Of a stretch of DNA of 64,000 bases, positions 25,318 through 47,230 are shown piece after piece (the stretch's first letter is position 1; each line of letters starts with the position of its first letter). The notes beneath the pieces are model-generated. The model was given only the letters and a program-made list of their open reading frames with translations, was not told the origin of the DNA and did not search any database. Origin of the DNA: a virus. The stretch is from positions 94,285-158,284 of the IMG/VR virus record IMGVR_UViG_3300045988_154609; one strand, given 5' to 3'. The translations under genes were made by a program, and so were the position numbers.

Positions 25318-26048
25318 ATATAATTTTTATGAGAATTTCTTTTTCCTCTACATACAGCAGATATTGTTGAAGAATTTCCACCACAGAATTGAGCAGCTAA
25401 TTGAAGACTATCAAATTCTTGAATTAAGTTATTATCCTTATCATATGCTCCAACTCTACGGCTAGTTTTTGTAATTCTATTACTTTGAACTTGATTCACC
25501 TTTGCTTTTGGTTCAATAATTTGATTTTCATCATCTAAAAATCTAAATGTTCTATTACCAGTTGTTAATCTCGTTCCATTACAAACATTACTAATTTTAA
25601 AACGGTCTAATCCAGTATCTTCACCAGCTTCAGCTAAAGAATTCCAAATATTAAGAATATTTTTTGTTGAGTCAATTTCACAAACTCGCTTTCCATATTT
25701 CTCTCTTTTGGTATCACTCATTTTCTTAGCAATAGCTGGGTCAAACATGGGGCTGTCAGTTTTATCCGTTTGATTATAACCATTTGGAACAACACAATTT
25801 TCTTTGAGAATCCAATTATGCTCTGCTTCAATCATTGCTTCCCAAGTTGGTAAAGTATCAATCACTTCAAAAGTGAAGTTTGCGATACCAAATTCTCTAA
25901 AAGCAACCATTAAAGGATAATTATAATGATGATCTTTTTCGTTAATAGATGCTTCTTTATGTTGTCTCCATCTACGTTCAACTTCAATCGATGAACCAAT
26001 ATAGACCATTCCATTTTTTTGATTAGTTATTTTATAAATTTGATACAT
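25299..26048 (-). CDS. GIY-YIG homing endonuclease (Seg/I-TevI-like, free-standing)
   Basis: N-terminal MYQIYKITNQKNGMVYIGSS...RRWRQH and a C-terminal DNA-binding region. The 3' end overlaps the gyrB start by 19 nt. Confidence 0.75.
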   Translation of the reverse strand: MYQIYKITNQKNGMVYIGSSIEVERRWRQHKEASINEKDHHYNYPLMVAFREFGIANFTFEVIDTLPTWEAMIEAEHNWILKENCVVPNGYNQTDKTDSPMFDPAIAKKMSDTKREKYGKRVCEIDSTKNILNIWNSLAEAGEDTGLDRFKISNVCNGTRLTTGNRTFRFLDDENQIIEPKAKVNQVQSNRITKTSRRVGAYDKDNNLIQEFDSLQLAAQFCGGNSSTISAVCRGKRNSHKNYIWRYLD

Positions 26049-31223: not shown

Positions 31224-32756
31224 TTACTCTTCAGTAGGAGCAACAACTGTATCAGCGTTAATGGTTACGCCTTTATTTGCGGCTAAGTTACCACCCATGA
31301 AACCAGCAAGAAGAGTCTTCAGGTCGATTCCAAGAGATTCACTCAGTCCTTCAGATACCTGAGTTACATTGGTCATGATGTCACCAGCAAGCTTAGAGGT
31401 GTCTCCACCGAACATCATAATCTTATCAACATTTGTGTATCCTTTACCAACAGCTTCAGCAATTGCCGGTAACTGCTCGAAGTAGACTTTAAGTGCCTGT
31501 AACTGCATGTCCTGCTTAGCAGCTTCACCATACTGCTTCATAGCCTCTGCCTTCTTCTGAAGACCTTCAGCCTCAGCTTCAAGTTTAGCTCTAATAGCAG
31601 CAGCTTCTGCTTCACCTTTTGCTTTGGCTGCAGCTGCATCAGCTTCACCCTGTGCTTTTACGGCTTCTGCAAGAGCTTTCTTAGCATCTGCATCTCTCTG
31701 TGCTTCTGCAAGAGCAGCTTCTGCCTGTTTTGTTCTCTCGAACAACTCAGCTTCAGATTTCTTCTGAGTCTCATACAATTTAGCATCTGCTCTCTGCTGT
31801 GCTGCATACTTCTCAGCTTCAGCAGTTTTCTTAACTTCAGCTTCCAGAGCACGCTCTTTAATAGCAACTTCTCTTTCTTTCAACTCAATCTGCTTTTCCT
31901 GACGAGCAATATCTGCTTCAGTAGCAGCAACGTCTCTTAACTGACGCTGTTTCTCTTCCTCAATTGCCTGTGCCGCATTAGCCTGAGCTTTTGCAGTATC
32001 AGCAGTCTTTTTGAGGTCTGCCTGCTTCATCTCGAACTCGTTGTTACGAACTGCAATTTCCTCGGCTGCCTGAACTTTAGCATCATTAGATTTCTTTGCG
32101 TTAGCTGCCTCAGCAACAGCGATTTCTCTCTGTGCATCAGACTTAGCGATTGCTGCATTCTTTCTAATCTGCTCAACGTTATCAATACCTAAGTTATCAA
32201 TAACACCGCCCTCATCAGAAAAATTCTGAACATTAAAAGAAACAAGCTCAAGTCCGAATCTGGCAAGATCAGGAACTACATTCTGCTGAACTTTTTCACT
32301 AAACGCTTTTCTATCAGATACCATCTCAGTCAGTTTCATCTGACCAACGATCTCACGGATATTACCTTCCAAGAGGTCATTAATTCTTTCTGCAATTACT
32401 TCACGTTTAATATTTAAGAAGTTCTGAGCCGCAAGTGCAATCATTTCATCAGTTCTTCCAACCTGTACAGAAACAGTAGAATCAACTTTTACGTTAATGT
32501 ACTCTGCTGTTGGAACGGCGGTACGAGTTTTCACATCAATCTGAATCGCACCAAGAGACAATTTATCAAGTTTCTCAAAGAAAGGAATTTTAATACCGGA
32601 TTTACCAATCAAGATTCGAGGTTTCTTGTGCGGACCAGAGATGATGTAAGCTACATCAGGTGAGGACTTCACATATCCTGTCGCAAGGATCACAATCAAC
32701 GCCACTGCAATGATAATTACAGGGATAAATGGAAGAATTGAACTTAAAATATTCAT
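31224..32756 (-). CDS. SPFH/band-7 (flotillin-like) membrane protein with long Ala/Glu/Lys coiled-coil
   Basis: N-terminal TM helix, a prohibitin-like domain, then an AEAEAKAEA-rich coiled coil. Length is 510 aa. Confidence 0.65.
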   Translation of the reverse strand: MNILSSILPFIPVIIIAVALIVILATGYVKSSPDVAYIISGPHKKPRILIGKSGIKIPFFEKLDKLSLGAIQIDVKTRTAVPTAEYINVKVDSTVSVQVGRTDEMIALAAQNFLNIKREVIAERINDLLEGNIREIVGQMKLTEMVSDRKAFSEKVQQNVVPDLARFGLELVSFNVQNFSDEGGVIDNLGIDNVEQIRKNAAIAKSDAQREIAVAEAANAKKSNDAKVQAAEEIAVRNNEFEMKQADLKKTADTAKAQANAAQAIEEEKQRQLRDVAATEADIARQEKQIELKEREVAIKERALEAEVKKTAEAEKYAAQQRADAKLYETQKKSEAELFERTKQAEAALAEAQRDADAKKALAEAVKAQGEADAAAAKAKGEAEAAAIRAKLEAEAEGLQKKAEAMKQYGEAAKQDMQLQALKVYFEQLPAIAEAVGKGYTNVDKIMMFGGDTSKLAGDIMTNVTQVSEGLSESLGIDLKTLLAGFMGGNLAANKGVTINADTVVAPTEE

Positions 32757-32804: not shown

Positions 32805-33074
32805 TCAACAATGATACTCATATTTTACTAACCAATATTCTTTGCCGTTTTCTTTATAAAGAACAGCATGGTCATCATATGGTGTTGTTATCAAACTTTT
32901 AAGTTTTTGAACAGCTTCAGTTTTATTTTTATAAACTGCATTTTTATGAAAAGTTAAATTTCCATGATACCCACTTGATTCTTGCGGGTCATAAGCAAAA
33001 CTGTTTAAATCTCGTAAAATTTGGGATTCTTTTGTAGAGCCGTCATAACTCTTATACCCAATTAAATGGCTCAT
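32805..33074 (-). CDS. hypothetical protein
   Basis: 89-aa ORF. Confidence 0.4.
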   Translation of the reverse strand: MSHLIGYKSYDGSTKESQILRDLNSFAYDPQESSGYHGNLTFHKNAVYKNKTEAVQKLKSLITTPYDDHAVLYKENGKEYWLVKYEYHC

Positions 33075-33622
33075 AGCATATCTTTACACTCCTCATATTT
33101 ATTTTTTATATCTTCAATAACTGTATCTAGTGAAACTGGATAACAGTTATGAGAATCAACTCCTACATGATACATAAAGAAATTATCTTCATAAAAATTA
33201 ACATTCTGATGTGTATGACCAAATAAGTTTAAAGTCATATGATGTAATCCTGAATCATCAACATTACCAGTTAATGTTGGATAATGACTCATATAAAAAT
33301 TATACTTTTTATATTTTAAAACTGTCGAATATCCAAGGCATTCAAGATCATTCTCTTTGTAAAGATTAATTCTTGTATTTGTATCATGGTTTCCAATAAT
33401 AAAATACTTTTTACCATTTAGCTGTTTTAAACATTCGAGTCCATGTTCATTATCTTTCAGCATCAAGTCGCCTAAGATATACACTTCATCTTCTGGCTGC
33501 ACCAGCTCATTCCATCTTTTAATAATTTCTTCGTCATGGTCAACAATATTCGGAAAGCCTCTTGGCTCATAAATGAAACCTTTATCATGACCCAGGTGAA
33601 GGTCTGAAGTCACATAAATCAT
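33071..33622 (-). CDS. calcineurin-like metallophosphoesterase
   Basis: MIYVTSDLHLGHD...GDL...GNHD motifs. Overlaps the kinase gene start and stop. Confidence 0.7.
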   Translation of the reverse strand: MIYVTSDLHLGHDKGFIYEPRGFPNIVDHDEEIIKRWNELVQPEDEVYILGDLMLKDNEHGLECLKQLNGKKYFIIGNHDTNTRINLYKENDLECLGYSTVLKYKKYNFYMSHYPTLTGNVDDSGLHHMTLNLFGHTHQNVNFYEDNFFMYHVGVDSHNCYPVSLDTVIEDIKNKYEECKDML

Positions 33623-34203
33623 TCTACATACTCCTTATCAGCATCTCCTACAATCAAAATATGTTTGTAGGTATATTTTTCATTGTAAGTTGGCTTATCA
33701 AAAGTATAAAACATTCTTCTGATTGTTCCTCTTGGAACATAAGCACGTCCCATTCCTTTTCGATTCTCATTCTGAGCAAGAATTTGAGCAAGCGGTAAAT
33801 TAAATACAACTGGAATAATATCTACTCCATCCAAATCAAGCTTATCAAGAACTCGATTTCTTGCTTTTTCACTCAGATGAGTTGCATCTGCAAAAACTGC
33901 AATATCATCAGTTGCGTCATTTAAAGCATTTTTAATTCTATTGCAGAACTCATCAAAGACATCATCTTCATACTTGAAGATGTTTTTATCATCTTCTTTT
34001 AAGAATTCAGCTCTTACTTCATCTCTTGACACATGTACACACTTGTAAGTCGTTGCCTGTGCCATTTCCTTCTTGACGTAAGTCGTCTTTCCCGATCCTG
34101 CGGGTCCGCACATAAGAAAGAGAATCTTGTGCTTCATCTTTATACACCCCATTTTTAAAATTTTCTTTAAACTCAAGAACATCCTCATATGATTTACATT
34201 CAA
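33619..34203 (-). CDS. P-loop polynucleotide-kinase-like protein (AAA_33/zeta-like). Likely true start near 34137.
   Basis: Walker A LMCGPAGSGKTTY. Translationally coupled to the phosphoesterase, resembling a split bacterial Pnkp healing module. Confidence 0.55.
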   Translation of the reverse strand: MNVNHMRMFLSLKKILKMGCIKMKHKILFLMCGPAGSGKTTYVKKEMAQATTYKCVHVSRDEVRAEFLKEDDKNIFKYEDDVFDEFCNRIKNALNDATDDIAVFADATHLSEKARNRVLDKLDLDGVDIIPVVFNLPLAQILAQNENRKGMGRAYVPRGTIRRMFYTFDKPTYNEKYTYKHILIVGDADKEYVE

Positions 34204-34475: not shown

Positions 34476-34518
34476 ACTTTCTATATATATTATATAATAT
34501 TTTTTATAAAATATCAAT
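34476..34518 (-). promoter_or_regulatory. conserved promoter box, upstream copy of a tandem pair
   Basis: AACTTTCTATATATATTATATAATATTTTTTATAAAATATCAA, a near-identical duplicate of 34391-34425. Confidence 0.55.
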
Positions 34519-34742
34519 TAAATATCAATTTCTGCATCTAACATAAAATTTTCAGCCTTAATTTTTTCCCAAGCCTCTTCTCTTTTCTTTTTTCGATGAA
34601 ATATAGATTTAACTTTCATGACTTCTGATATTGCTTCTGCACTGATCATAGCATCAAGCATTGACCATTGCCCATCACAAGCTCGTTTATTGGCCCATTC
34701 AGAGAACTCATCAAATGTAACGTCTTTCATTTCTTTCTTCAT
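34518..34742 (-). CDS. hypothetical protein
   Basis: 74-aa ORF. Confidence 0.4.
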   Translation of the reverse strand: MKKEMKDVTFDEFSEWANKRACDGQWSMLDAMISAEAISEVMKVKSIFHRKKKREEAWEKIKAENFMLDAEIDI

Positions 34743-34744: not shown

Positions 34745-35923
34745 TTATCTCCTCTGCATTATTCCAAAAGGATTGTCACTATAATAGTCTCCTTCAATTT
34801 GCGGAGTGTATTCATTACAATGTGTAATAATGATTTTTTTAGAAAATCTTGTATCAAGTTTGACTTTTTCAAAATCATTATCGATTCGAGTAATTACATC
34901 ACTCTTTTTCATTACACCATATCTTAATCCACCCTGGAAATCATTATGTACATTTGTTTTATCAAACATCTCTGTATTGATTTCTTTTTTCTGAGCTTCT
35001 TGCTCAATAGGGCCAACCCCATGTCTGGTTACATATGAACGCATTACATAGCAAGCATCAACTGAAATGTCTTTTTTATCTGCTAAAATCTCAAAAGGAT
35101 ATGTTACTCCTGTGCGGGAAGTGGTATGCCAAACATCATCATAATAGAAATCAAGTCCTAATCCCTGACCATTCTCAAAAATAAAACTATCAAACTTATG
35201 ATAAAGATTGTCAAAAGTGATAATTTCATTTCTCTCAAGGAAAAATAATATATCACTTCTAAAATTACAAATTAAAGACTGTCTACCAACGGAATGTTTA
35301 TCAAAATATTCTCTGTAAGTAGTAATTTTATCAAGCTGTACTCCACGCTTAAAAAGAATTACAAGACAATCTCTCCAAATTTCTTCCATATGGAAAAGAT
35401 ATTCTTCATCTGTCCAGCTTGCAAAATCAGCAACTGTAAAATGAGTCTTCATTGTAGGATCGCCATATCTATCCTCAATAGCACACCAAGAGCCAAAGCC
35501 GCAAGAACCATATTCTCTTTCACCATTCTGCTCGGCAATCCAATTTTCTGTAATATGATCAATCATCATATCAAAAGGAGTAATTACTTTTGCTTCTGGA
35601 TCAACGTATCCTTTTAAATTCAAAGGAAATAAATGCTGTTCCAATAACTCATAATACTCTTTTGTATAAGTCATAGGATGAATAAAAAAGGTTTTCGCAA
35701 AAAAAGTTGGAACTCCTTCTGCGGTGCCGCTTCCAAAATGATGGTAGACATGCCGCAATTTAGTTGTATAATCAACTGTATGACCACGCTGAGCCGTTCC
35801 ATTGTGAAAGATTACTACTGGTTTTAAACCTCGATTAAGAGCATCTTCACAAAAATGATTTGTTACAAGACCTTTTCCTTCATCTCCAAAGTTTGCTCCA
35901 ATAACAATTTTACTTTCTTTCAT
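34745..35923 (-). CDS. divergent adenylosuccinate synthetase (PurA) family enzyme; candidate PurZ-like nucleotide-modifying enzyme
   Basis: VIGANFGDEGKG (PurA P-loop GDEGKGK), GTAQRGHTV (GHNAGHT His), FENGQGLGLD (Q224 region) and SYVTRHGVGP are present. The TTGRRRR loop is replaced by GGLRYGV. Length is 392 aa, shorter than cellular PurA. Confidence 0.7.
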   Translation of the reverse strand: MKESKIVIGANFGDEGKGLVTNHFCEDALNRGLKPVVIFHNGTAQRGHTVDYTTKLRHVYHHFGSGTAEGVPTFFAKTFFIHPMTYTKEYYELLEQHLFPLNLKGYVDPEAKVITPFDMMIDHITENWIAEQNGEREYGSCGFGSWCAIEDRYGDPTMKTHFTVADFASWTDEEYLFHMEEIWRDCLVILFKRGVQLDKITTYREYFDKHSVGRQSLICNFRSDILFFLERNEIITFDNLYHKFDSFIFENGQGLGLDFYYDDVWHTTSRTGVTYPFEILADKKDISVDACYVMRSYVTRHGVGPIEQEAQKKEINTEMFDKTNVHNDFQGGLRYGVMKKSDVITRIDNDFEKVKLDTRFSKKIIITHCNEYTPQIEGDYYSDNPFGIMQRR

Positions 35924-35924: not shown

Positions 35925-36236
35925 TTAGTCTAACCTTTCATCACAATATTTATCTACAAAAGTTTCAAAGCCCATTCTCGCACAAATTACATCAAGTTCA
36001 TCGGCTGTTTCTTTAACAGAGTCTTTAATAGAATAAATAATCCAATTATATTCCTGCTCAACAATTTCATCTTCATCATTTAACCCAAAAGATTCAGCAA
36101 CATTATAAGCCATTTCATAGCCATAATCATTGGCTTCTTCAATATCATCTACCTCTACAACTTGACAATTATAGATTCCATGTAATCCCTGATAAGTACC
36201 TTCTGTTGCATAAATATAAACTCTCATAAAAAACAC
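35925..36236 (-). CDS. small highly acidic protein (possible DNA mimic)
   Basis: About 100 aa, very D/E-rich, with its own promoter box and a strong SD. Confidence 0.4.
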   Translation of the reverse strand: MFFMRVYIYATEGTYQGLHGIYNCQVVEVDDIEEANDYGYEMAYNVAESFGLNDEDEIVEQEYNWIIYSIKDSVKETADELDVICARMGFETFVDKYCDERLD

Positions 36237-36244: not shown

Positions 36245-36286
36245 ATTTTCTATATATATTATATTATATTTTTAATAAAAAATCAA
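36245..36286 (-). promoter_or_regulatory. conserved promoter box
   Basis: aattttctatatatattatattatatttttaataaaaaatcaa. Confidence 0.55.
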
Positions 36287-36314
36287 AGGAGGACTATTAT
36301 CCTCCTTTTATATT

Positions 36315-37235
36315 TTAAATGTCCCAGCTCACTTCAGAAGAAGCTGTATCATTGTCATTAATATCAATTTTAACTGGACCAGTTTCAAAAGCTGTTCCTG
36401 TTTTACTTCCATGATTAATTACAATATCTGTAATAATCTTTGCAAGACCATTTAAACCAGATACAAAGTAATGGTCATTTCCTACAAGTTTTCTCCAAGA
36501 CTCATCAAAGTCTGGGTGTCTACTGCATAACCATTTATAAGAGCTTTCATTATCATCAATAGAGATATGGTAAACATCAAATTTTTCAAAAACTTCTTTC
36601 TGTAAATCTTCTGTTTCAACATCTCCCTGGAGAGAATCTCCAGTACATTCAGCTAATCCCCATTTTGGTAAATAAGGATTTGGCTTTTCATCTCCCATTG
36701 TAATGATAATGCCTTTCTGACCTCTGTTCCAGCAGTCAAGTTTACAATGATTTAATCCCATATACCAAGCGGCTGTATAAGACTCAAAACTATTACCACC
36801 ACCGCCGCCTTCAAAATACATCTTATCAAGCTGCTCTGCAATTCTAATATCAGATTCAAACTGAGACATCTGAATTGGCGCTCTGTCATAAGCAAGGTCT
36901 CCGATTCCCATTACACAGAACTCAACATCCTTAATAGAGTTGTCTGCATAAATATCAGTCATAATCTCATTCAGCTTCTTAGCAACCTGAACTGCGGCGC
37001 CGCCCATAGAACCAGTTACATCAAGTGCCAGAATAACTGGAACTGTATGCGGATGCTCCTCAGAATCGCAACATTCACGCATTACTCCTTTTGGATTTAA
37101 AGCTGCGTCAAGTTTACGAGATGTATAAAACTCCTGTGCTGAAAAAGCCATTGTATCAAACTCGTCAAGAGAAACTCCTCTTGAATGAGATGTATAATCA
37201 CTAAATGCTTTAGTTGTCCAACTTCCTCCACCCAT
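36315..37235 (-). CDS. von Willebrand factor A domain protein
   Basis: MIDAS motif LALDVTGSMGG. Translationally coupled to the upstream Met-rich ORF. Confidence 0.6.
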   Translation of the reverse strand: MGGGSWTTKAFSDYTSHSRGVSLDEFDTMAFSAQEFYTSRKLDAALNPKGVMRECCDSEEHPHTVPVILALDVTGSMGGAAVQVAKKLNEIMTDIYADNSIKDVEFCVMGIGDLAYDRAPIQMSQFESDIRIAEQLDKMYFEGGGGGNSFESYTAAWYMGLNHCKLDCWNRGQKGIIITMGDEKPNPYLPKWGLAECTGDSLQGDVETEDLQKEVFEKFDVYHISIDDNESSYKWLCSRHPDFDESWRKLVGNDHYFVSGLNGLAKIITDIVINHGSKTGTAFETGPVKIDINDNDTASSEVSWDI

Positions 37236-37996
37236 TAGTCTTCGTCCTCCTCATCATCATCTGTGCTAACTACCGAAGCATCACCAAAATCAAAAGCTCC
37301 CTCAAACATATTCTCAAACATGTTTCCGCCATTTCCCATCATCATAAACATCATAGGATTAATACCGCCCATGTTCATAGAACCGCCTGTGTTATTTCCA
37401 TTAAACATCTGGCTCATCATCATCATACTCATCATAGAAGACATAGAACCATTATCCTTAGTCATATTCATAAACGGACTGAAAATCTTACCATAGCAGT
37501 ATGTTTTTCCCATAAAGACATGATGCTCTGGAATAGTCTCCTGGATAGTGGAGTCTTTATAACTGAAAGTCTTGATAGAATTTTTTCCTACCTCAATGAC
37601 TGCTCTTGGCTCGTTATTAACCAGGATAATGTCACCAACAGCAACTTTAAATGTAGGAACTACCCAAAATGCTCCATCCATATCAAAAGCGAAATTATCG
37701 CAGTTTGTAAGTTTCATTGTCTTAACATTGAAAGTTTTGTAGCCATTCTGCACCTTAATGGCAATCTTACCATTAGCGCCCATTTTGCAATAACCTTTTG
37801 CTACTGGTTTAAACATTCCATTAAACATATTTCCAAAATCAAACATATTTTCTTCTTTCCTTTCCTTTAGCTTTTTTTCTGTATTTCTAACAATAGCCCA
37901 ATGATCCATTATATCACCTATATTTCTTAAAGCCTTATCTACAGCTTCTGAAAAGCTTGGATCATCAATATCAAAAGCATATCCATTTGTTATCAT
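37235..37996 (-). CDS. protein with Met/Gly/Asn-rich low-complexity C-terminal region
   Basis: C-terminal ...MSSMMSMMMMSQMFNGNNTGGSMNMGGINPMMFMMMGNGGNMFENMFE...DDDEEDED. Confidence 0.5.
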   Translation of the reverse strand: MITNGYAFDIDDPSFSEAVDKALRNIGDIMDHWAIVRNTEKKLKERKEENMFDFGNMFNGMFKPVAKGYCKMGANGKIAIKVQNGYKTFNVKTMKLTNCDNFAFDMDGAFWVVPTFKVAVGDIILVNNEPRAVIEVGKNSIKTFSYKDSTIQETIPEHHVFMGKTYCYGKIFSPFMNMTKDNGSMSSMMSMMMMSQMFNGNNTGGSMNMGGINPMMFMMMGNGGNMFENMFEGAFDFGDASVVSTDDDEEDED

Positions 37997-38053
37997 TTCT
38001 TTTACTTTCTATATATATTATATTATATTTTTTTTATTTTATCAATTTACATA

Positions 38054-38371
38054 TTACTTATCCTCATCATCGTAACAATAAAAATGTTCATCAGGATCTT
38101 TTCTTACAGCATCCATACATCCATTAGTAGCTTCAAGAGCTTGAACAGGAGTTAAATCTCCATATAAAGTCTGATACCATTTTGGATGATAACATTTAAG
38201 ATAAGCAGGATCGCTTACACAATCTTTATATCCTCTTGGGCATACCGGATTGTATGCCCGAAACTGAGAATACTGAGGTACTTCTGCATATATAGGATTT
38301 TCTCTGCATTTAATGCAAAGATCTTTTGGAGCTACACATTTATCACATCTTGTCATTTTATTAGTCCTCAA
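38054..38371 (-). CDS. Cys-rich hypothetical protein
   Basis: 105 aa with multiple CxxC motifs. Confidence 0.4.
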   Translation of the reverse strand: MRTNKMTRCDKCVAPKDLCIKCRENPIYAEVPQYSQFRAYNPVCPRGYKDCVSDPAYLKCYHPKWYQTLYGDLTPVQALEATNGCMDAVRKDPDEHFYCYDDEDK

Positions 38372-39116
38372 AAATGCTATTTACGTCAAATAATACATTT
38401 TGTTCCCAAGTATCCAAATCAATTAATGGTAAATTTCCTGTAAAAAAACATCCTCCATCAATATCAATTTTATGAGCTTTACCCGCAGAATCTTTGCAAT
38501 AGAAATATGCTCCAGGAGAAGCTTTCTTTCCGCTCATCTTACACATATACTCATAACAATAATGACCTAAAAGGGGAACTGGAGTGTGTCCATGAACAAA
38601 AATTACATTATCCATTCCACCTTTTTCATCCCATTCATCATCAAAATGCTCTCGATTCCAAATAAAATCATCTTCAAACTCTGGAAATCCTAAGTGCGGG
38701 CCAGGTGTAAAACCTGAATGAGATAAAATTACAACTTCTCCATTTTTATTATCATAACGATACCACTTAGGCAAGTTGTCGATAATATCAATGTATTTTC
38801 TATCACTTCCATCTGCTTTCCATTCATCAAAAGTAGATTGACCACCATTAGCACAATGAAGTCTTGTGCAATGCTTTATCCGCATAGAATCTGCAAACAT
38901 CTGTTCATGGTTGCCGCAGATTAAGAAGAAATGTTCAGAATCTTCAAGAACCTCTTTTAAAATTTTGAATCCTTCTGGACCCCTATCTACACAATCACCT
39001 AAAATGTAGCAAAAACTATTGTCTGCATATACAATATTTTTTACCATTTCCCATAAATCATACTGACCATGAAGATCAGAACAACAATATACATGACTCA
39101 TATTTTTACACCTCAT
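38361..39116 (-). CDS. PPP-family Ser/Thr phosphatase (lambda phosphatase-like)
   Basis: GDCVDRGPEG and GNHE motifs, with an N-terminal DLHG. Confidence 0.75.
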   Translation of the reverse strand: MRCKNMSHVYCCSDLHGQYDLWEMVKNIVYADNSFCYILGDCVDRGPEGFKILKEVLEDSEHFFLICGNHEQMFADSMRIKHCTRLHCANGGQSTFDEWKADGSDRKYIDIIDNLPKWYRYDNKNGEVVILSHSGFTPGPHLGFPEFEDDFIWNREHFDDEWDEKGGMDNVIFVHGHTPVPLLGHYCYEYMCKMSGKKASPGAYFYCKDSAGKAHKIDIDGGCFFTGNLPLIDLDTWEQNVLFDVNSIFED

Positions 39117-40097: not shown

Positions 40098-40559
40098 CTA
40101 CTGGTTCAAAAGTTCAGTAAGAACTTTATTAATAAGTTTTCCATCTGCTTTGCCTTTAAGTTTAGGCATAATATTTTTCATAACCATACCTTTCATTTTT
40201 GGTCCAATAGGCTCAGTAACAACCTGAGTAAGCTCAATTAACTCTTCATTAATAAAAGCTCGAATTTCATCCTCTGTCATAAGAGTTGGAGCAAATTCTT
40301 TAATTACTTCAAGTCTATACTTATAAGATTCCAAAAGGTCTGTTCTTGCAGCAGGGCAAGTATCAATCATTTCCTGTACGGTTTTCTGCTCTTTTAAGAT
40401 AACTGCATCAACCATGTCTTCTGAAATGTTATTTCGGCAATTTTTATCAATAGCCGCCTTTTTAATAGCATCAACAAGACTGGAAATAACATCTTTTCGA
40501 GCCTTGTCTTTAGCCTTCATTGCGGTAACCATCTCTTTCATAACTGTATCAAGTGTCAT
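40098..40559 (-). CDS. GatB/YqeY-domain protein
   Basis: The overall pattern matches YqeY-like proteins (..LK.KDK.R..VI..L..AIK.A.ID... through ...MGKVMK..MPKLKGKADGKLI..VL.ELL). Confidence 0.55.
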   Translation of the reverse strand: MTLDTVMKEMVTAMKAKDKARKDVISSLVDAIKKAAIDKNCRNNISEDMVDAVILKEQKTVQEMIDTCPAARTDLLESYKYRLEVIKEFAPTLMTEDEIRAFINEELIELTQVVTEPIGPKMKGMVMKNIMPKLKGKADGKLINKVLTELLNQ

Positions 40560-40560
40560 T

Positions 40561-40857
40561 TTAATTCTCTCCTTTATAATATTCTTTTACAAAATCTTCT
40601 ACTGGTATAAAAGCTTTATAAGTTGACGATAATGTAACTAATTCTTTTACTCCTACAATCCCTGGAATATTTAAAAGTTCTTTAATTGCTAATGTTTCAT
40701 TCGGAAACTGTTGTCTTTCAATATGACATTCCAAATCATCTTCATTTAAATCTGGAATAAAAACATATCTCCAAGTATTAAACATATTATCTTTTGAAAT
40801 ACAAAGTTTTCGATATGAATTTTTATTATCTTTTGAAATATGTAATTCAAGAAACAT
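40561..40857 (-). CDS. hypothetical protein
   Basis: 98-aa ORF. Confidence 0.35.
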   Translation of the reverse strand: MFLELHISKDNKNSYRKLCISKDNMFNTWRYVFIPDLNEDDLECHIERQQFPNETLAIKELLNIPGIVGVKELVTLSSTYKAFIPVEDFVKEYYKGEN

Positions 40858-41111
40858 TATTTTCCTAACCTCTCTTCAAAAATAGTAATAAAATCTTCAA
40901 CGTTTCTCTTTGGAGAAGCTGTTAAAAGAATTTCTGTAATGTTTGGATATTTTCGTAAATCTCTAATAGCATCTAATTCTGATGCAAAAGTGCATTTACA
41001 AATATGATGCTTAGTAAGATTTATATAACGATATTTCTGGAGATTCTTATCAAAAAGAATCTCCACTTCCTGCGGATCTTTATCTGAATAAAAGATTTTA
41101 AAATGGAACAT
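40857..41111 (-). CDS. hypothetical protein
   Basis: 84-aa ORF. Confidence 0.35.
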   Translation of the reverse strand: MFHFKIFYSDKDPQEVEILFDKNLQKYRYINLTKHHICKCTFASELDAIRDLRKYPNITEILLTASPKRNVEDFITIFEERLGK

Positions 41112-41302
41112 TAATATTTCTCCTTTCTTAAAATCCTATCCATTTTTTGTCTGCGGTTATCCGTCCTTGCGGGCTTGCCACCTGGCTTAGCCCGATATGT
41201 TTTGCAAGTCTGGCAATGACCGTAGAAGTCAGCCTCTTTGCCCAAATCACATTTTCCGTTACATACATAATGAATACAAGCGATTTCTCGTGTCTTTGCC
41301 AT
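41111..41302 (-). CDS. small Cys-rich protein
   Basis: 63 aa, C.....CNGKC...C..C. Confidence 0.35.
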   Translation of the reverse strand: MAKTREIACIHYVCNGKCDLGKEADFYGHCQTCKTYRAKPGGKPARTDNRRQKMDRILRKEKY

Positions 41303-41533
41303 TTCCTTTACTCCTTTTTATTTATTTCTTAAAGTCATCTATAGTCATTATTAGATTCAAAATAAAACAAACTCCCCAACATATAGCACAAAAGATTGAA
41401 GTTCCAATCTTAAAATTTGTTGTAGCGAGTACAGCTTGTACTATAAAAAGAATACAAACTACTAAATCTAAAAGTGCTATTATAAGATATAAAAATCTCA
41501 TAGTATTTGCTCCTTTCTTAGAAGTTCCATTCC

Positions 41534-42715
41534 TTAAGAATGGAACTTCAATAAAAATTCATTGGAAACCGCCTTAAAGGACTGAACGCCATCCTGAGAA
41601 CGGAATACAAGACCTTCACGCATCTTTCCATCTATCACAGAATCACCTGTCGCAATAGCAAGAAGTTCATCAACTGTATCTGGAAGGATAAAGTTTTCAT
41701 CCACAATCGGCACCCATGGAATACCATACTCCATCATCAACTTGCTTGCCCGTTTAGAATCCCAACGACCTTCCGCAGAAGTGATGAAGTTAAATCCCAT
41801 AAAGTTATGCTCTTTCAGAGAGTATTCTCTCTTCTGGATACCCTGACCATAAGTTTCACCCTGAAGTGTTACCCATTCAAGGTCTGGACGATTTCTGAGA
41901 ATCTTCTGGAGAGTTGCTTCAACATTGTACTTTTCTGCCATTTCAACGTAAACGTTGGTATCATAAAAACAAGACTTATCCGGCTTATCAAATACTACAT
42001 TACGAGAGCAGATATAAAACTCAAATTTTTCTTTCTTCAAGAAACGAGTCTTAACTCTTTTCATTGTAAAGGTAGTAGAAGTACCATCAATTTTTTCAGT
42101 TGCAACCCATGGATTTTTATTCTCAAGAATCCAAGGCATATTTTGTACACGCTCTTCATCTGTTTTAGAAACCCATGCCGGCCATCCGGTTTTCTTATCA
42201 GAAGTTTTACCGAAGAACATGAATAAAATTTTCTTACCCCAAGTTCTACGCATTAACCATCTAAAAGGCTGATGAGAGAACAGTTTTCCATGTCTCTGAG
42301 CCATCTTTTTATATTTATCCACAGAAGATGCTTTACGAGCATTATCTTCTTTAACTGCATAAATTACTTTTAATTTCTGAGTTAAAAAGTCACCAAGTTT
42401 ATAAGCGTCCTTTTCCCAACCGAAGTCTTCAAAGCTCATAAGTAAACCCTGAGAAATTACAGTGCCTTTAAAATATTTCTGAGTTTTAATTTTAAAATGT
42501 TTCGGCTCAAGGAACATAAATGGCTCTTCTGCTGGAACTTTAGAATCAATCTCAAAGTAAACAGCTAAATCACCTGGCTTAAACTGGTCTTTACGAACCA
42601 TAATATGCCAACCATTTACGATAGCTACTTCTACTCTGTCAGCTCCTTCAATAGGACGAATCTCGTCAACTTTGACAACATAAGCAAGCTCTCTTTCTTT
42701 CTTTTCATTCAGCAT
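41534..42715 (-). CDS. ATP-dependent RNA ligase (Rnl family) with N-terminal OB/tRNA-binding-like domain
   Basis: Nucleotidyltransferase motif I TEKIDGTST (KxDG). The N-terminal ...VVKVDEIRPIEGADRVEVAIVNGW resembles a Myf/tRNA-binding OB fold. Confidence 0.65.
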   Translation of the reverse strand: MLNEKKERELAYVVKVDEIRPIEGADRVEVAIVNGWHIMVRKDQFKPGDLAVYFEIDSKVPAEEPFMFLEPKHFKIKTQKYFKGTVISQGLLMSFEDFGWEKDAYKLGDFLTQKLKVIYAVKEDNARKASSVDKYKKMAQRHGKLFSHQPFRWLMRRTWGKKILFMFFGKTSDKKTGWPAWVSKTDEERVQNMPWILENKNPWVATEKIDGTSTTFTMKRVKTRFLKKEKFEFYICSRNVVFDKPDKSCFYDTNVYVEMAEKYNVEATLQKILRNRPDLEWVTLQGETYGQGIQKREYSLKEHNFMGFNFITSAEGRWDSKRASKLMMEYGIPWVPIVDENFILPDTVDELLAIATGDSVIDGKMREGLVFRSQDGVQSFKAVSNEFLLKFHS

Positions 42716-42772
42716 ACCTATTAATCTCCTTTATTTATTGTAAATATATTATATAAAAATTTTAAAAGTAAA

Positions 42773-43348
42773 TCAATTAAGGTCTGTTTCTTTCAAACAT
42801 TCGTGATAAATCTTAATGAGATTTTTCTTATTTAAAAGTGCCTTATATCCAACATTATGCTCTTCTCTCCATGCTAAACGAGATAATACTTTATCTATAA
42901 AAGCTTTAGTCGCAGGATGCATAGCAATAGGATTCTTAATCTTATTCTGCCACCACTTATATTCTCCTTGATATGTAAAATTTTTTCCCATATAAGCCCG
43001 TCCCGCACCTAAATAATCACAAAGTAGCTCCAAAAGATACTTGTCTGGCATTGGGAGTGCGGTGCCACCTTTATCGAAGTTATCCTGCCAGTACTCATAG
43101 TGGTGTCGATTCCGACCTTTATGATGCTGCCAAGCAAAGGACATTCCATTTTCCTCTTTACAAGCATCTATCGGAGAACGAGTCCCCTGCCAATATTTGA
43201 CACCTTCCCAAAATTCAACAGGAGAAAATTTGGATAAATCGTGTGTAATTCCCTGCTTATAAAGACCAATTTTAAAGCAGTATTTTCCTACCCAATATTT
43301 ATGTTTACATACCGTTTTTAAGTGTCCAAAAAAGTTTTTAATTTTCAT
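42773..43348 (-). CDS. hypothetical protein (possible HD-like motif ITHDLSKF)
   Basis: 191-aa ORF. Confidence 0.4.
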   Translation of the reverse strand: MKIKNFFGHLKTVCKHKYWVGKYCFKIGLYKQGITHDLSKFSPVEFWEGVKYWQGTRSPIDACKEENGMSFAWQHHKGRNRHHYEYWQDNFDKGGTALPMPDKYLLELLCDYLGAGRAYMGKNFTYQGEYKWWQNKIKNPIAMHPATKAFIDKVLSRLAWREEHNVGYKALLNKKNLIKIYHECLKETDLN

Positions 43349-43351
43349 ATT

Positions 43352-43738
43352 TTATTCCTCTAAATATTTATACTCTATTTTATGTAAAGAATCATCTTTT
43401 TTATAGTAAATATAGGTACATTGTACCTGTATCTCATCTCCTTCTTTAATCGCATTAAATATAGAAGAAGAAACATTTACTTTTTCATTATTTACGCCAT
43501 ATAAATAATATGAATGATTTGTAATAGGAATAAGAACTTTCCCGCTTATTACAAAAGAATGATCTACATCATCTTCTTTATTTATAACTTCAACTGCTCT
43601 TACTTCAGTTTTTAAATAAAATTGGTCATAATACTTCCTTATCCCAGCTATAATTCCAATGCAAACTGCGATAATAAGTACCACAACTACAATGTGCTTT
43701 ATAATTTCTTTTAATCTTTGTCTTCTCCAATATTCCAT
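43352..43738 (-). CDS. hypothetical membrane-anchored protein
   Basis: N-terminal TM helix. Confidence 0.4.
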   Translation of the reverse strand: MEYWRRQRLKEIIKHIVVVVLIIAVCIGIIAGIRKYYDQFYLKTEVRAVEVINKEDDVDHSFVISGKVLIPITNHSYYLYGVNNEKVNVSSSIFNAIKEGDEIQVQCTYIYYKKDDSLHKIEYKYLEE

Positions 43739-44067
43739 TACTCAACTTTCCAACCAGCTTCCTTACAAACTCTTTTCATATTCTGAACTCCAACAGGATT
43801 CATACTATGAAATTTAAAAGTTGCATAAATATGCCAACCCCGCAGTTTTTGGCAACATTCAAGCCAGTCAAGAATTTTAATATAGTCTCCACCTTTCTCA
43901 TAATATTCACCGGCATCATGATCTAAATTAATTTCATTAACTTCAAGAATGTCTCCTTCTGGTCTAACAAGAGTAGTAAGACACATTTCTGCGTCCCAAA
44001 CACTCTTAATCCAAATATAAGATTCATCTGGCGCGGGCCGCATATCATCAATCCAAAGTTTAATCAT
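43738..44067 (-). CDS. hypothetical protein
   Basis: 109-aa ORF. Confidence 0.4.
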   Translation of the reverse strand: MIKLWIDDMRPAPDESYIWIKSVWDAEMCLTTLVRPEGDILEVNEINLDHDAGEYYEKGGDYIKILDWLECCQKLRGWHIYATFKFHSMNPVGVQNMKRVCKEAGWKVE

Positions 44068-44885
44068 TATTTTACCTCAAATTTCCAATAGTAGAAGTTG
44101 TACTGTTTCTTTGTATTATAGGATTTTTTAATCCTTTTGGCAATATTGTGGACATTTACAGTCGGATTATTTCTCATGCTCTTATCATATGATTTAACAT
44201 ATTCAACTGCTTCTTTAAGATTCTCAAATTTCTTAGTTCTTTCTTCTTCAAAATTTTTAGTAGGACAACAAAAAACATCAAAACGAGTATCTTCATATTC
44301 AATCTGGTCGGTTGTAATTTCCTTATACTCCATAAATACATTTGCATCTACTTCAGAAGCTTTTTCATTTTTACAGCCTTCATAAACTTCTTTTAACATC
44401 TTTGCATCGTCAAGAGAATTATGAGTCTGAACAATTTCTTCTCCTCTAAAATATTCGCAAACTTTAGCGAGGTTAATCAGTTTGATTAAGCCGAAATGAA
44501 CCTTAACAGCAGGAGCAAAATCCTTCATATCTGTATTCATATAACCAAGAATTGCTTTTGCTTTAAAACTATTTGTTTTGCGGAAGGTTGCTTTGATAAA
44601 ATCTGTATCACAATTCCCATAACAATAAAATTCAGGAATGTCATCGCCGCAATCTTCAAAACAAAAATCAAAGAACTCATTGAATACCTCTTCTGGAGAA
44701 GGAGCTGCTTCAACCATTTCTGTGGTAATACCTGTTAAATCAGTAATAAACTTAGAAACATTCTTATTTGTATTCTCTGGAGTATGCACAAGAGAATAAA
44801 ATTCTTTTCCATCTTCTCGAACACATCCAACAGAAATAATGTAATTGGAAAACTGCATTGCTTCAAAATCAATAAAATATTTCAT
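44067..44885 (-). CDS. DEDD-family 3'-5' exonuclease (DnaQ-like)
   Basis: Exo motif I FIDFEAM and a later H.SLDDA motif. Confidence 0.55.
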   Translation of the reverse strand: MKYFIDFEAMQFSNYIISVGCVREDGKEFYSLVHTPENTNKNVSKFITDLTGITTEMVEAAPSPEEVFNEFFDFCFEDCGDDIPEFYCYGNCDTDFIKATFRKTNSFKAKAILGYMNTDMKDFAPAVKVHFGLIKLINLAKVCEYFRGEEIVQTHNSLDDAKMLKEVYEGCKNEKASEVDANVFMEYKEITTDQIEYEDTRFDVFCCPTKNFEEERTKKFENLKEAVEYVKSYDKSMRNNPTVNVHNIAKRIKKSYNTKKQYNFYYWKFEVK

Positions 44886-44903
44886 AATGTATCAATCCTC
44901 TCT

Positions 44904-45086
44904 TTAGTCAAGTCTTACTTTTTTAGTATAAAGTTTCTTTTCAACAATACTTCCACAATCTGGACATCTGAAATAGGAAAAAATAGAATTTCGACATTCA
45001 TCTTGTGATGCAATAAATACACAATGACATTTTGAACATTTTAACCGATAACCATATTTGTCACCAGGTTTAAGAATTTTAATCAT
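44904..45086 (-). CDS. zinc-ribbon protein
   Basis: 60 aa, C..C...C.DC. Confidence 0.35.
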   Translation of the reverse strand: MIKILKPGDKYGYRLKCSKCHCVFIASQDECRNSIFSYFRCPDCGSIVEKKLYTKKVRLD

Positions 45087-45105
45087 TTCTTTTTATCCTT
45101 TCCTT

Positions 45106-45149
45106 AACTTTCTATATATATTATATTATAATTTTAATAAAAAATCAAT
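45106..45149 (-). promoter_or_regulatory. conserved promoter box
   Basis: aactttctatatatattatattataattttaataaaaaatcaat. Confidence 0.55.
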
Positions 45150-45160
45150 AAAGGAAAAAC

Positions 45161-45949
45161 TTATTCAGTTTTTCCTTTATTAAAATTAGGAGATTTTCTA
45201 AAATAAGTTGGAAGTAAATAATTTTGATCATTCCATCTTTTCCATATCTCTTCTAAATCTTCGATTGCTTTAAAATATTGTTCAACATGCGGGCGCTCCA
45301 TTCTATCTGCGTGAAAGTGACCAAAAAGCCAAACACCCCAATTAATCTTATCTTTAAAAGAATCAAGCCAAACTTCCATAGAATCATCTACAGTAGACTG
45401 GTCAATCATAGATAAAAATAAGTCAGTTGGTTCCCAGCTTAATGGACAAGTATGAGTAAAAACAAAATCAAAACTTTGTCCCGCATACATTGCTTCAATA
45501 GCCTGCATTTCTGCTTCTGTTAATTGTTCGTTTGGATACCAAGTATAATGATTTTCAAGTCTATACCATTTATCCACAGAATAAGCTCCACCTATTACAA
45601 GTGTATTATGACCAAGAAAATCATAATTAGAGCCATCCATAAGATAATGGATATGAGGATAACCGGGTTCAATGAAAACATAATTCGCAACATCATCATC
45701 CCAAACCTCTTCAATGCCTTTAACATCTTCTGGACGAGCTTCATGATTTCCCCTTACCAAATAAAATGTACATCCATATTGCTCAAGTTGCATCTTAATA
45801 TCATGTCGCCTTGCCGCACTTTTATAAAAATTTACACCTGCATCTCCTAAGATAATAATACCAGTCTCTTTTGGATTTTGTATTTCAAGCCATGCAAAAC
45901 GATCCATACAGCCATGTGTATCTCCTGTTACAAAAAACTGTTTAATCAT
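45161..45949 (-). CDS. calcineurin-like metallophosphoesterase
   Basis: FFVTGDTHG, LGDAGVN and RGNHE motifs. Overlaps the downstream nucleotidyltransferase gene by 4 nt. Confidence 0.7.
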   Translation of the reverse strand: MIKQFFVTGDTHGCMDRFAWLEIQNPKETGIIILGDAGVNFYKSAARRHDIKMQLEQYGCTFYLVRGNHEARPEDVKGIEEVWDDDVANYVFIEPGYPHIHYLMDGSNYDFLGHNTLVIGGAYSVDKWYRLENHYTWYPNEQLTEAEMQAIEAMYAGQSFDFVFTHTCPLSWEPTDLFLSMIDQSTVDDSMEVWLDSFKDKINWGVWLFGHFHADRMERPHVEQYFKAIEDLEEIWKRWNDQNYLLPTYFRKSPNFNKGKTE

Positions 45950-46767
45950 TTCTTTTCCTCCAACTCAAAAGCAATACTTTTCTTCATAATTTCTGCTTGA
46001 ACTTCTTGAAGAAGATTTTCAGCTTCTTCATCAGTATAGTTAAATTCAGAGTCTTTTGTATATGGGGCACAAATTTTATCAATATGAGCCATATGCTCAT
46101 CCGCAACTTTAATAGCTTCTTCTTTTGAATAAAGACCAGTTTTAATGTCTTTTAAATATTGCGGGTTAGCTGGACACAAACATTCTTTATATGGCGCTCC
46201 AGCAATATATTTATCGAGATATTCATCAATTCTCACAAGCTGATAAAGCTGTTTTGGGTCATAATTAAACTTTTCAAATGTTTCTTTATGAGCTTCTGTT
46301 TCTTTAGTAAGAGCATATCTTTTTCCAAGAGCAATGCCAGACATAGCTTTTACTGCGAAATAAGGATTATAATGTGCAATAACTTCATTTTTCGCAATCA
46401 ATTTATTCCACTCTTTTTCATACATTGGATTAATGATTTTATAATTAGTGAAAAGAATTTCAATAAAATTTAGATTCTGTTTGCGGAAAGTATCAAACAT
46501 AAGCCTAATATCTTTAAAGTCAATATGTTCCCCATTAGCCCTGAAATGAGTTGTAGACATAGGTTTACGATTATAAATAAAATCATTTAATGTCGGAGTG
46601 GTAATAAGTTTTGTATCAATATCAGAATCTTCAGTATCAAGACCATAATTTTGACTACCTTGTAGAAAAATACCTACAATATTATTCTTAGCAAAGTATT
46701 GTTTAGATTCAAGATAATGCTCTTGAATACCATTCGCAGTTTTAATTATTGTATTAAGGTCTGCCAT
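45946..46767 (-). CDS. pol-beta superfamily nucleotidyltransferase
   Basis: GS...D.D motif IFLQGSQNYGLDTEDSDIDT. Confidence 0.5.
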   Translation of the reverse strand: MADLNTIIKTANGIQEHYLESKQYFAKNNIVGIFLQGSQNYGLDTEDSDIDTKLITTPTLNDFIYNRKPMSTTHFRANGEHIDFKDIRLMFDTFRKQNLNFIEILFTNYKIINPMYEKEWNKLIAKNEVIAHYNPYFAVKAMSGIALGKRYALTKETEAHKETFEKFNYDPKQLYQLVRIDEYLDKYIAGAPYKECLCPANPQYLKDIKTGLYSKEEAIKVADEHMAHIDKICAPYTKDSEFNYTDEEAENLLQEVQAEIMKKSIAFELEEKK

Positions 46768-46785
46768 ACTTTCTCACCTTCCTTT

Positions 46786-47216: not shown

Positions 47217-47230
47217 ACATGAATCCTTTC

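Follow-up and report, generated by a model that had tools for sequence, protein, structure and literature searches.

The described systems closest to the gene considered here are the cellular adenylosuccinate synthetase PurA, which converts IMP, L-aspartate and NTP, and the phage enzymes PurZ and PurZ0, in which condensation of dGMP with aspartate starts the synthesis of dZTP and the phage DNA carries 2-aminoadenine (the Z base). A 2026 survey collected 481 phage proteins of the Pfam family PF00709, of which 147 are PurZ or PurZ0, and found that the catalytic Asp13 is replaced in all 147 by Ser, which accommodates the 2-amino group; the family described below formed part of the outgroup (PMC12884076). 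A first-pass annotation of our locus had taken the phage PurA homologues described so far to be PurZ, a premise which the 147 of 481 proteins do not support. Here we analyze a PurA-like gene in a 64-kb stretch (hereafter, the window) of the IMG/VR virus record IMGVR_UViG_3300045988_154609, a 195,681-bp human-gut metagenome contig. The window has a G+C content of 28–38%, with nearly all annotated genes on the minus strand. The encoded protein represents a third, phage-dominated and uncharacterized branch of the PurA superfamily, and its gene forms a cassette with those of a vWA (von Willebrand factor A) protein and a third protein, which we call gene 1. We read the product as a PurA-type ligase within a vWA-organized, probably Hsp70-linked complex that serves the adenine-nucleotide and NAD economy and not DNA base replacement, and place the probability of this reading at roughly 0.55.

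A third branch of the PurA superfamily

The open reading frame (ORF) spans 34745..35923 on the minus strand, starts with ATG and encodes 392 residues, as first annotated. All of the motifs quoted in that annotation are found in the translation, GDEGKG at residues 13–18, RGHT at 46–49, FENGQG at 249–254 and TRHGVGP at 299–305. The protein is indeed about 40 residues shorter than PurA, which has 432 residues in Escherichia coli, and the reported replacement of the aspartate loop was borne out, since FQGGLRYGV (329–337) lies where E. coli PurA has GATTGRRRR. The Pfam model PF00709 matches with E = 1e-18, at profile positions 1–283 of 416 only, and PHROG 1211, named "2-aminooxy adenylosuccinate synthetase", matches at 1e-37. 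AlphaFold, given 56 relatives, produced a model with a predicted local distance difference test score (pLDDT) of 85.7. A Foldseek search with this model returned 43 chains of the PurA/PurZ family at E <= 0.001 (template modeling score, TM, 0.5–0.68), and PurA-superfamily structures only. The top matches were long bacterial and eukaryotic PurA structures (TM 0.60–0.68, 15–21% identity), followed by PurZ0 (7VF6), PurZ (7ODX, 6FKO) and Pyrococcus PurA (TM 0.55–0.60, 10–15% identity). Judged by these profile and model comparisons, the homology to adenylosuccinate synthetase is far beyond chance. The fold and the catalytic Asp13, Lys16, His41 and Gln224 of canonical PurA are present, while the scores against the NCBIfam purA equivalog models are below both cut-offs (TIGR00184, 51.5 bits against 395.55; NF002223, 46.4 against 402).

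We compared the PurA-like family with PurZ. In an alignment of 154 diverse family members and reference sequences, numbered as in E. coli PurA so that D14 of our protein is Asp13, the Asp13 column holds D in 154/154 family members and in 3/3 PurA sequences, and S in 5/5 PurZ or PurZ0. A neighbor-joining tree of 35 sequences, in which archaeal short PurA was not included, splits off the PurA-like family in 200 of 200 bootstraps and unites PurZ with PurZ0 in 200 of 200, with the E. coli, Listeria and Staphylococcus PurA proteins apart. Thus the phylogeny that the first-pass annotation had proposed as a check gives the family a clade of its own, neither with PurZ/PurZ0 nor in cellular PurA. A phmmer search of all PDB sequences found bacterial PurA at E of about 1e-5 and no PurZ chain at E <= 1, and the NCBIfam PurZ model (NF038379) scored 15.2 bits against a cut-off of 300. 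Searches by tblastn of the window, 64 kb of the 196-kb genome, with PurZ, DatZ and DpoZ of phage phiVC8 and MazZ of Alteromonas phage ZP6 gave no match below E = 3.9, with DatZ, DpoZ and MazZ giving none below E = 5, and phiVC8 PurZ did not match the PurA-like ORF even at E < 10. No MazG-like gene was found in the window, as had been stated.

An HD phosphohydrolase gene (47231–47659; Pfam HD, 1.4e-5), which had been put forward beside DatZ-type hydrolases, is real, but we rejected it as DatZ, to which it has no tblastn likeness when compared with the phiVC8 protein. It adjoins a Pol-beta nucleotidyltransferase and a Thg1-like gene, matches just the HD part of a longer phosphohydrolase PHROG, and appears to belong to a set of genes for tRNA repair or CCA addition. 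The thyX-like gene and the DnaE-type polymerase that had also been listed were absent from the approximately 55 window ORFs scanned; the largest of these encode GyrA (792 residues), NAD-dependent ligase (651 residues) and GyrB (646 residues), and none is of DnaE size.

The family is found in phages of Actinobacteria, Proteobacteria and Clostridia, and also in Saccharibacteria chromosomes. A 90%-clustered collection holds 2,139 relatives at E <= 1e-3, of which the top 120 are full-length and 47–92% identical, and a 50%-clustered collection holds 4,567 representatives; 1,005 of these reach E <= 1e-30, most with 370–445 residues. We confirmed 511 PurA-like loci in IMG/VR, typically on contigs of 90–215 kb. 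The hosts of the window's own subfamily are apparently Lachnospiraceae, Oscillospiraceae and Ruminococcus, from bins of metagenome-assembled genomes (MAGs) and isolate genomes (loci L114, L148 and L171). Among cultured phages, those of Mycobacterium (202), Rhizobium (10), Vibrio (6) and a handful of others carry the family. PurZ/PurZ0 is carried by phages of Arthrobacter, Microbacterium, Acinetobacter and Gordonia and by phiVC8-like Vibrio phages, and the two sets hardly overlap. An enrichment study found that phage contigs with a PF00709 protein lacking the PurZ Ser mostly have unmodified (dA) DNA (bioRxiv 10.1101/2025.10.22.683976), which lends our reading indirect support. The PurZ option of the first-pass annotation is therefore contradicted by Asp13, the separate clade, the PurZ model score, the missing Z-cluster partners and the phage sets, and the protein is almost certainly not PurZ. 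The variant with a different substrate, another of the three options in that annotation, fits the remodeled amine loop described below.

Many records of cluster C mycobacteriophages and of Rhizobium and Vibrio phages (NC_008207.1, with Catera gp252; NC_070966.1; PP083314.1) carry the label "2-aminooxy adenylosuccinate synthetase", which was probably transferred to them via PHROG 1211 by RefSeq and Pharokka-style annotation. On hundreds of phage records this label implies Z-DNA, and both Asp13 and the tree contradict it. Surveys of Z-genome phages by PF00709 or PHROG 1211 will accordingly over-count. The family is known in databases merely as "PurA-like" or as mislabeled PurZ, and its gene association with vWA appears to be undescribed; a literature search, which did not cover subscription journals, found nothing on the vWA partner, the gene-1 proteins, the PurA-vWA link, a function of the family or a counter-defense role of PurA-like proteins.

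The vWA partner and gene 1

The constant partner of the enzyme is a protein of 306 residues (36315..37235, minus strand) with the N-terminus MGGGSW and LDVTGSMG, a sequence of the metal-ion-dependent adhesion site (MIDAS) type. It has no match among Pfam or NCBIfam models or PDB sequences, and its vWA Rossmann-like fold was assigned by fold search. Of the MIDAS pattern DxSxS...T...D, the assigned parts, D72-V-T74-G-S76 and D182 (in a GDE sequence after the fourth strand), are invariant. The N-terminal MGxGxW is near-invariant in all lineages (G2 in 89/90, G4 and W6 in 88/90), and residues 1–3 are predicted to be disordered and exposed (pLDDT < 50). In some cluster C phages, such as the Mycobacterium phages Sauce and Quasimodo (H94 and H99; BFVD A0A3G3M5V4), the vWA protein is annotated as an "HNH endonuclease" of 595 residues. 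Here the tblastn match ends at query residue 206, as if an inserted endonuclease had interrupted or extended the gene.

Linkage of the two genes is near-constant. With the enzyme as query, 86 of 89 loci had the vWA gene directly upstream and in the same orientation, usually at 18–130 nt, and one of the exceptions is a contig end. Reciprocally, loci fetched with the 306-residue protein from 185,579 species genomes have the PurA-like gene directly downstream in 77 of 80, two exceptions being contig ends. Host counts in cultured phages are identical for the two proteins (Mycobacterium 202, Rhizobium 10, Vibrio 6). In three unrelated cultured lineages the gene directly upstream of the PurA-like one encodes a homologue of the window's vWA protein, namely in Rhizobium phage RHph_TM2_3B (32% identity, 2e-42), Vibrio phage Va1 (34%, 4e-53) and Mycobacterium phage Catera (gp250; 32%, 6e-40). 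Four distant lineages have nothing but the cassette genes in common within 7–10 kb of flank, and among 85 loci just three gene families recur in more than 75, with the next recurring in 20. The vWA protein is also better conserved than the enzyme, at 53–60% identity to the window's protein versus 33–38%. Functional coupling of the PurA-like enzyme to the vWA protein is thus highly probable. The first-pass annotation had not remarked on this adjoining gene, which is the decisive part of the context. Vi01-like phages list an "adenylosuccinate synthase" and a vWA protein, and are not among the tblastn matches. We also considered a relationship of the cassette to known defense systems and dropped it, since PADLOC gave no match for any of the three proteins.

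Gene 1 (37235..37996, minus strand) encodes a small beta-rich (KOW-like) domain, a low-complexity stretch rich in Met, Gly and Asn, the tail NMFENMFEGAFDFGD and an acidic end, and its conserved part begins at M51 (37846). This Met-rich kind is present in 75 of the 85 loci, where its stop codon abuts the vWA start (gap of −19 to +5 nt); by composition and tail, a Met-rich gene 1 of about 200 residues is recognized in about 145 of about 155 loci. The Vibrio Va1 and Rhizobium phages have distant counterparts in the same layout. Searches of Pfam, PHROG, NCBIfam and PDB with the Met-rich kind gave no match beyond weak ones to GPKOW_C, in 4 of 15 members. A second kind of gene 1, found in Catera (gp249), a low-GC phage locus (L045) and five chromosomal loci, has an N-terminal J-domain followed by a kinase-like domain. 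Its HPD motif is present in 6 of 7 members and the Pfam DnaJ matches, at E = 9e-5 to 0.03, are below the gathering score. The catalytic loop of the kinase-like domain was recognized in 6 of 7 members and is there HGA(V/I)(L/T)P and not HRDLKP, and so the catalytic Asp is missing.

Profile scans detected no J-domain in the window's gene 1. Its tail follows the form D-(L/M/I)-F-x-G-(L/M/I)-F-D that is typical of the Met-rich kind, and 61 of 63 distinct gene-1 proteins have one or two [DEN][IMLVF]F motifs within the last 70 residues, for instance DMFDGMFDF, this being a short motif in low-complexity sequence. We compared the tail with the G/F region of E. coli DnaJ (DFSDIFGDVFGDIF), whose DIF repeats it resembles (ADFSDIFGDVFGDIFGGG). 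By the DIF-like tail in one and the J-domain in the other, both kinds of gene 1 would carry features of Hsp70 co-chaperones, although this is suggestive only. A link of the cassette to Hsp70 is correspondingly tentative, and we put it at not quite even odds.

Reaction, role and rival explanations

Across the family alignment, residues kept at 92–100% are the P-loop positions G12, D13, E14, G15, K16 and G17, then G40, H41 and T42, and also G132, R143, E221, Q224, G225, T239, T271, R272 and G274; our protein itself retains the P-loop D14, H48, Q253, T267 and R152. In E. coli AdSS (adenylosuccinate synthetase) the kept residues serve in Mg-NTP binding, proton abstraction, phosphoryl transfer to O6 of IMP and the hold on the IMP 5'-phosphate, and Arg143 acts from the second subunit. 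The retention of Arg143 suggests that the PurA-like protein is still a dimer. Because the core residues for phosphate transfer from NTP and for holding a purine nucleotide are invariant, we infer that the two-step PurA reaction is kept, and the protein is likely still a 6-oxopurine ligase.

Other positions have changed across the whole family. These are Q34 to N (96%), N38 to Q (98%), A39 to R (81%), T128 to S (90%), T129 to C (89%), R131 to a hydrophobic residue, T226 to L (98%), S240 to P (70%) and V273 to H (100%). The amine (aspartate) loop has been remodeled, with G298 to N (96%), T300 to F, Y or W, T301 to Q (100%), R303 to S or T, R304 to L and R306 to Y. The loop of canonical PurA, comprising Thr300, Thr301, Arg303 and Arg305, is therefore lost; of these only the R305 position is kept, in 94% of the family, although the loop alignment is less certain. 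The loop tip, ATTG in PurA and TTVT in PurZ, is replaced by an aromatic residue and Gln, and charge is lost. In the guanine-specificity motif, K331 has become H (87%), and D333 has become N (64%, including our protein) or is kept as D (30%), so that our protein reads THCN and not the canonical (N/T)KxD motif for GTP. The resulting family signatures in our protein are GSCG (C141), TRHG (H301), FQGGLRY (Q330, R334) and THCNE (H368, N370).

These changes bear on the likely substrates. The NTP base pocket of our protein would no longer be guanine-specific, Asn being the state in the ATP-using PurZ, and ATP, not GTP, probably serves as the phosphate donor. V273, the position beside ribose C2', has become a His that would form hydrogen bonds. 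R303 of PurA contacts the 2'-OH; this His may replace it, which would favor a ribonucleotide. PurZ has a Val beside ribose C2', which excludes the 2'-OH (PMC8342488). The nucleotide substrate of the PurA-like protein is probably a ribonucleotide without a 2-amino group, and the amine may no longer be free L-aspartate.

Neighboring genes in other genomes indicate a possible role. A Candidatus Saccharimonadaceae contig of 644 kb (L178) carries a triad of J-kinase, vWA and PurA-like genes at 8764–12504, flanked by pncB, pncA and a histidine phosphatase gene on one side and by NrtR, nadE and nadD on the other. Its vWA protein shares 70% identity with gp250 of mycobacteriophage Catera, which suggests that actinophages and these bacteria have recently exchanged genes; relatives of Catera gp250 are also found on large cellular contigs. 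The five chromosomal triads (L178–L182) come from Saccharibacteria and one Acidimicrobiia MAG, and their PurA-like enzymes carry the GSCG, TRHG and QGxFRY signatures. NrtR is the divergent downstream neighbor in 3 of the 5, and other neighbors are genes for a Ham1-like ITPase, AdoHcyase, PfkB kinase, NT5C, NADAR, NUDIX and a 2H phosphoesterase. In the Rhizobium phages a HAD hydrolase gene, a phosphoribosyltransferase-like (Nampt-like) gene and an NMN adenylyltransferase/NUDIX gene lie 3–5 kb from the cassette. The window itself has a microbial-type PARG catalytic domain fused to a macro domain (50266–51075), a candidate ADP-ribose remover that possibly counters ADP-ribosylating defenses. The NAD-salvage neighbors in Saccharibacteria and Rhizobium phages, together with the PARG-macro protein, point to adenine-nucleotide, NAD and ADP-ribose metabolism, and a role of the cassette there is conceivable, though its odds are clearly below even.

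We propose that an NTP, probably ATP, would phosphorylate the 6-oxo group of an IMP-like ribonucleotide, and that an amine would then displace the phosphate to give an N6-substituted adenine nucleotide. From the near-constant vWA linkage and the kinds of gene 1, the enzyme would act within a protein complex organized by the vWA adaptor, and this complex would probably engage the host Hsp70 (DnaK). In the infected cell the enzyme would take part in the economy of adenine nucleotides, NAD and ADP-ribose, where it might counteract depletion.

Several observations weigh against this scheme. Linkage is the sole argument for a complex of the three proteins, and two loci break it, one with the phosphatase, gene 1 and vWA genes but no PurA-like gene within 6 kb (L092, 4444–7749) and one with a PurA-like gene but neither vWA nor gene 1 (L069, 3000–7100). 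For the chaperone connection, the J-domain matches are under the Pfam gathering score and the likeness to the DnaJ G/F region is that of a short motif in low-complexity sequence. The NAD neighborhood is seen in 3–4 of 5 chromosomal contexts and one phage lineage and is missing in L180, the Vibrio Va1 cassette adjoins an anaerobic ribonucleotide reductase with no NAD genes adjacent, and RNA-repair genes predominate around the cassette in the window, where they could hint at a different role. In the amine loop the branches do not align reliably, and it forms the weakest part of the residue table. PurZ moreover uses aspartate (PMC8342488) though it is without the TTGRRRR arrangement in our alignment, and so the loss of R303 is no proof of a new amine.

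The last point is shared with the plainest alternative, also among the three options of the first-pass annotation, an auxiliary metabolic gene whose product is an ordinary adenylosuccinate synthetase raising AMP, ATP and dATP, with vWA and gene 1 regulating, stabilizing or folding it. The catalytic core and the contacts to the IMP phosphate are kept, as is R305 in 94%, the Saccharibacteria cassette stands among purine and NAD salvage genes where a step from IMP to AMP would fit, and PurZ binds aspartate with a diverged loop (PMC8342488). Nevertheless, the Thr-Thr tip common to both aspartate-using branches has become (F/Y/W)-Q with an invariant Gln, R303 is lost, and the protein scores 51 bits where the purA equivalog cut-off is 395; nor does a housekeeping-type enzyme explain why a vWA gene whose product is better conserved than the enzyme should be linked to it almost obligately. 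We regard this explanation as unlikely. The PurZ explanation can draw on a phage-encoded PF00709 protein, on membership in PHROG 1211 with its label and on Asn at the D333 position of the NTP-base motif, as in ATP-using PurZ. Its chances are negligible when set against the kept Asp13, where Ser is universal in PurZ/PurZ0 (PMC12884076), the separate clade and the 15 bits to a PurZ cut-off of 300, the lack of a tblastn match of phiVC8 PurZ to the ORF and of any DatZ, MazZ or DpoZ relative in the window, and the different carrier phages.

Two further explanations turn on what the vWA protein does. If the enzyme were a protein-directed ligase, the N-terminal glycine of vWA (MGxGxW with Met removed) or another protein amine would attack the 6-phosphoryl purine nucleotide, and the product would be a protein with an N6-linked adenine nucleotide. 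Such a reaction would account for a near-invariant N-terminus that is predicted to be disordered and exposed, for an aspartate loop that has lost its positive charge and for near-obligate linkage. The argument is purely contextual, we found no precedent in the literature, the L092 locus keeps MGSGSW without a PurA-like gene within 6 kb, and known PurA active sites, as in E. coli AdSS, are closed over small substrates; we consider it improbable. Alternatively, the PurA-like protein could be non-catalytic or an NTPase only, a SIMIBI-type nucleotide switch that, with vWA, remodels a target in the manner of MoxR-vWA pairs. vWA proteins are typically paired with a target-acting NTPase (RavA-ViaA, CbbQ-CbbO, BchI-BchD). 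A paper on such proteins may be compared (PMC9489729), and gene 1 has chaperone-like features. A switch would not, however, need Gln224, Thr239, Arg143 and the N38 and Q34 positions, which are required only for a purine monophosphate and are conserved at 92–100%, and we judge this explanation highly improbable.

Our preferred reading thus remains that of a PurA-type ligase in a vWA-organized complex. A bolder version of it is that the PurA-derived ligase, the MIDAS-vWA adaptor and the J-protein-like gene 1, as the tie to host Hsp70, may form a new system of phages and Saccharibacteria with a product other than that of PurA, either a non-aspartate N6 adenine nucleotide, acting as a metabolite, signal or inhibitor in conflict over NAD and ADP-ribose, or a vWA Gly2 linked to a purine nucleotide. 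This we think quite unlikely. A catalytically intact (as predicted) PurA-type enzyme with a MIDAS adaptor and a J-protein-like gene makes a defined system of three proteins for which cultured carriers exist. A product other than adenylosuccinate would mean that phage-host conflict involves a new nucleotide metabolite or protein modification, and adenylosuccinate itself would mean that a textbook enzyme has an unexpected chaperone or adaptor layer.

The cassette in its window and among known systems

Between the vWA and PurA-like genes of the window lies an acidic ORF of 100–103 residues (35925..36236, minus strand), which has no Pfam or PHROG match, occurs in the window's own lineage only and is not part of the conserved cassette. 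A lineage-specific ORF of 74 residues (34518..34742, minus strand) follows two bases downstream of the PurA-like gene. A promoter-like site just upstream of gene 1 (38017..38045, minus strand) matches 11 of 12 consensus positions, and a terminator-like hairpin right after the vWA stop codon (36285..36308, minus strand) is followed by another promoter-like consensus match (36258–36286, minus strand). Terminator-like sites in the region number 9 where 2.3 are expected, whereas the promoter-like sites are consensus matches only, their number not above the shuffled expectation. In this phage, the cassette may fall into two transcription units.

The second gene upstream from the cassette encodes a metallophosphoesterase of the NinI-like Ser/Thr phosphatase family (38361..39116, minus strand) and is a possible accessory gene that also adjoins the cassette in L092 and is found at a minority of loci. 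Behind the vWA gene of L092 come a Zn-ribbon ORF and another with a HEWCH zinc-protease-like motif. An AAA_33 kinase (33619–34203) and a Metallophos_2 protein (33071–33622) were considered as nucleotide-kinase partners and rejected as cassette members, as they recur in just 14–20 of 85 loci; the two look like a split polynucleotide kinase-phosphatase (Pnkp-like). A SPFH/Band 7 (flotillin-like) protein of 510 residues is encoded nearby (31224–32756), and a Band 7 gene is near the cassette in the related contig L006 too.

The cassette lies within a long run of accessory genes. Genes of the RNA- and tRNA-repair type occupy 33071–34203 and 40098–48453 and include an RNA ligase with an OB domain (41534–42715), an RNase T-like exonuclease (44067–44885), a Pol-beta nucleotidyltransferase (45946–46767) and a Thg1-like 3'-5' polymerase (47698–48453), with a DUF5662 and a YqeY-like protein among them. 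Further along is a complete diversity-generating retroelement (51707–54934), with a reverse transcriptase (51707–52924, minus strand; Pfam RVT_1, 1.4e-20), a template repeat (53128–53258), a variable repeat (53339–53469) and an adjoining tail-fiber-like target ORF (53327–54934, minus strand; PHROG 5302, 1.8e-69). The template repeat of 131 nt is 76% identical to the 3' end of the target ORF, and of the 31 mismatches, 30 are at adenines of the template. A DUF2828/DUF7788 protein of 507 residues (PHROG 850, "RNA-binding protein", 1.6e-128) is encoded just upstream of four tRNA genes (Cys-GCA, Lys-TTT, Gly-TCC and Leu-TAA), all within 55473–58877. The replication module (2988–25317) comprises an SF1 helicase, a RecJ-like exonuclease, a Toprim primase, a DnaB helicase, an AAA_24 protein, RNase H, an NAD-dependent DNA ligase, GyrA and GyrB. 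Scattered through the replication and accessory regions are at least five ORFs of homing-endonuclease type, namely HNH (13962–14663), two GIY-YIG (15887–16879 and 25299–26048), LAGLIDADG with NUMOD (48621–49646) and HNH (58885–59511).

Among known systems, cellular PurA (E. coli AdSS; TIGR00184, PF00709) has in common with the PurA-like protein the fold, GDEGKG, Asp13, His41, Gln224, Thr239, Arg143 and, as predicted from these, the chemistry. The PurA-like protein differs by its low identity (15–21%), the aspartate loop, V273H, T129C, the exchange of R131 for a hydrophobic residue and of TKLD for THCN, a shorter C-terminal segment and, unlike purA, a linked vWA gene. PurZ and PurZ0 (phiVC8, S-2L and Gordonia phage Archimedes) are likewise phage-borne members of the superfamily, and PurZ shares with our family Asn at the D333 position and the absence of the canonical TTGRRRR loop. 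However, PurZ has Ser in the P-loop where our family has Asp and falls in a separate clade, the solved PurZ/PurZ0 structures are 10–15% identical to our protein, and the Z-cluster partners were not found in the window. The genomes differ also, with the PurA-like family in large myovirus-type genomes of 130–215 kb and the listed PurZ phages at 38–48 kb.

The cultured kin are cluster C mycobacteriophages (Catera gp252 and the Bxz1 group), Rhizobium phages RHph_TM and Y65 and Vibrio phages Va1 and phiKT1024, at 25–31% identity and with the vWA gene directly upstream of the PurA-like gene, as in the window. The Catera type has 442 residues, GDAGKG and a retained PurA-like C-terminus, whereas the window protein is shorter with GDEGKG, and gene 1 of Catera is a J-domain-pseudokinase where that of the window is a Met-rich protein. 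In operon logic, with a MIDAS-vWA gene beside that of a P-loop enzyme that uses NTP, the cassette resembles the pairs of NTPase and vWA protein (RavA-ViaA, CbbQ-CbbO and BchI-BchD) and the vWA-kinase-phosphatase triads (TerY-P), the latter through a nearby kinase-like gene in the Catera type or phosphatase gene in the window. The partner that uses NTP is here a PurA-type ligase and not an AAA+ ATPase, and beyond the vWA fold the cassette shows no relationship in sequence to these systems.

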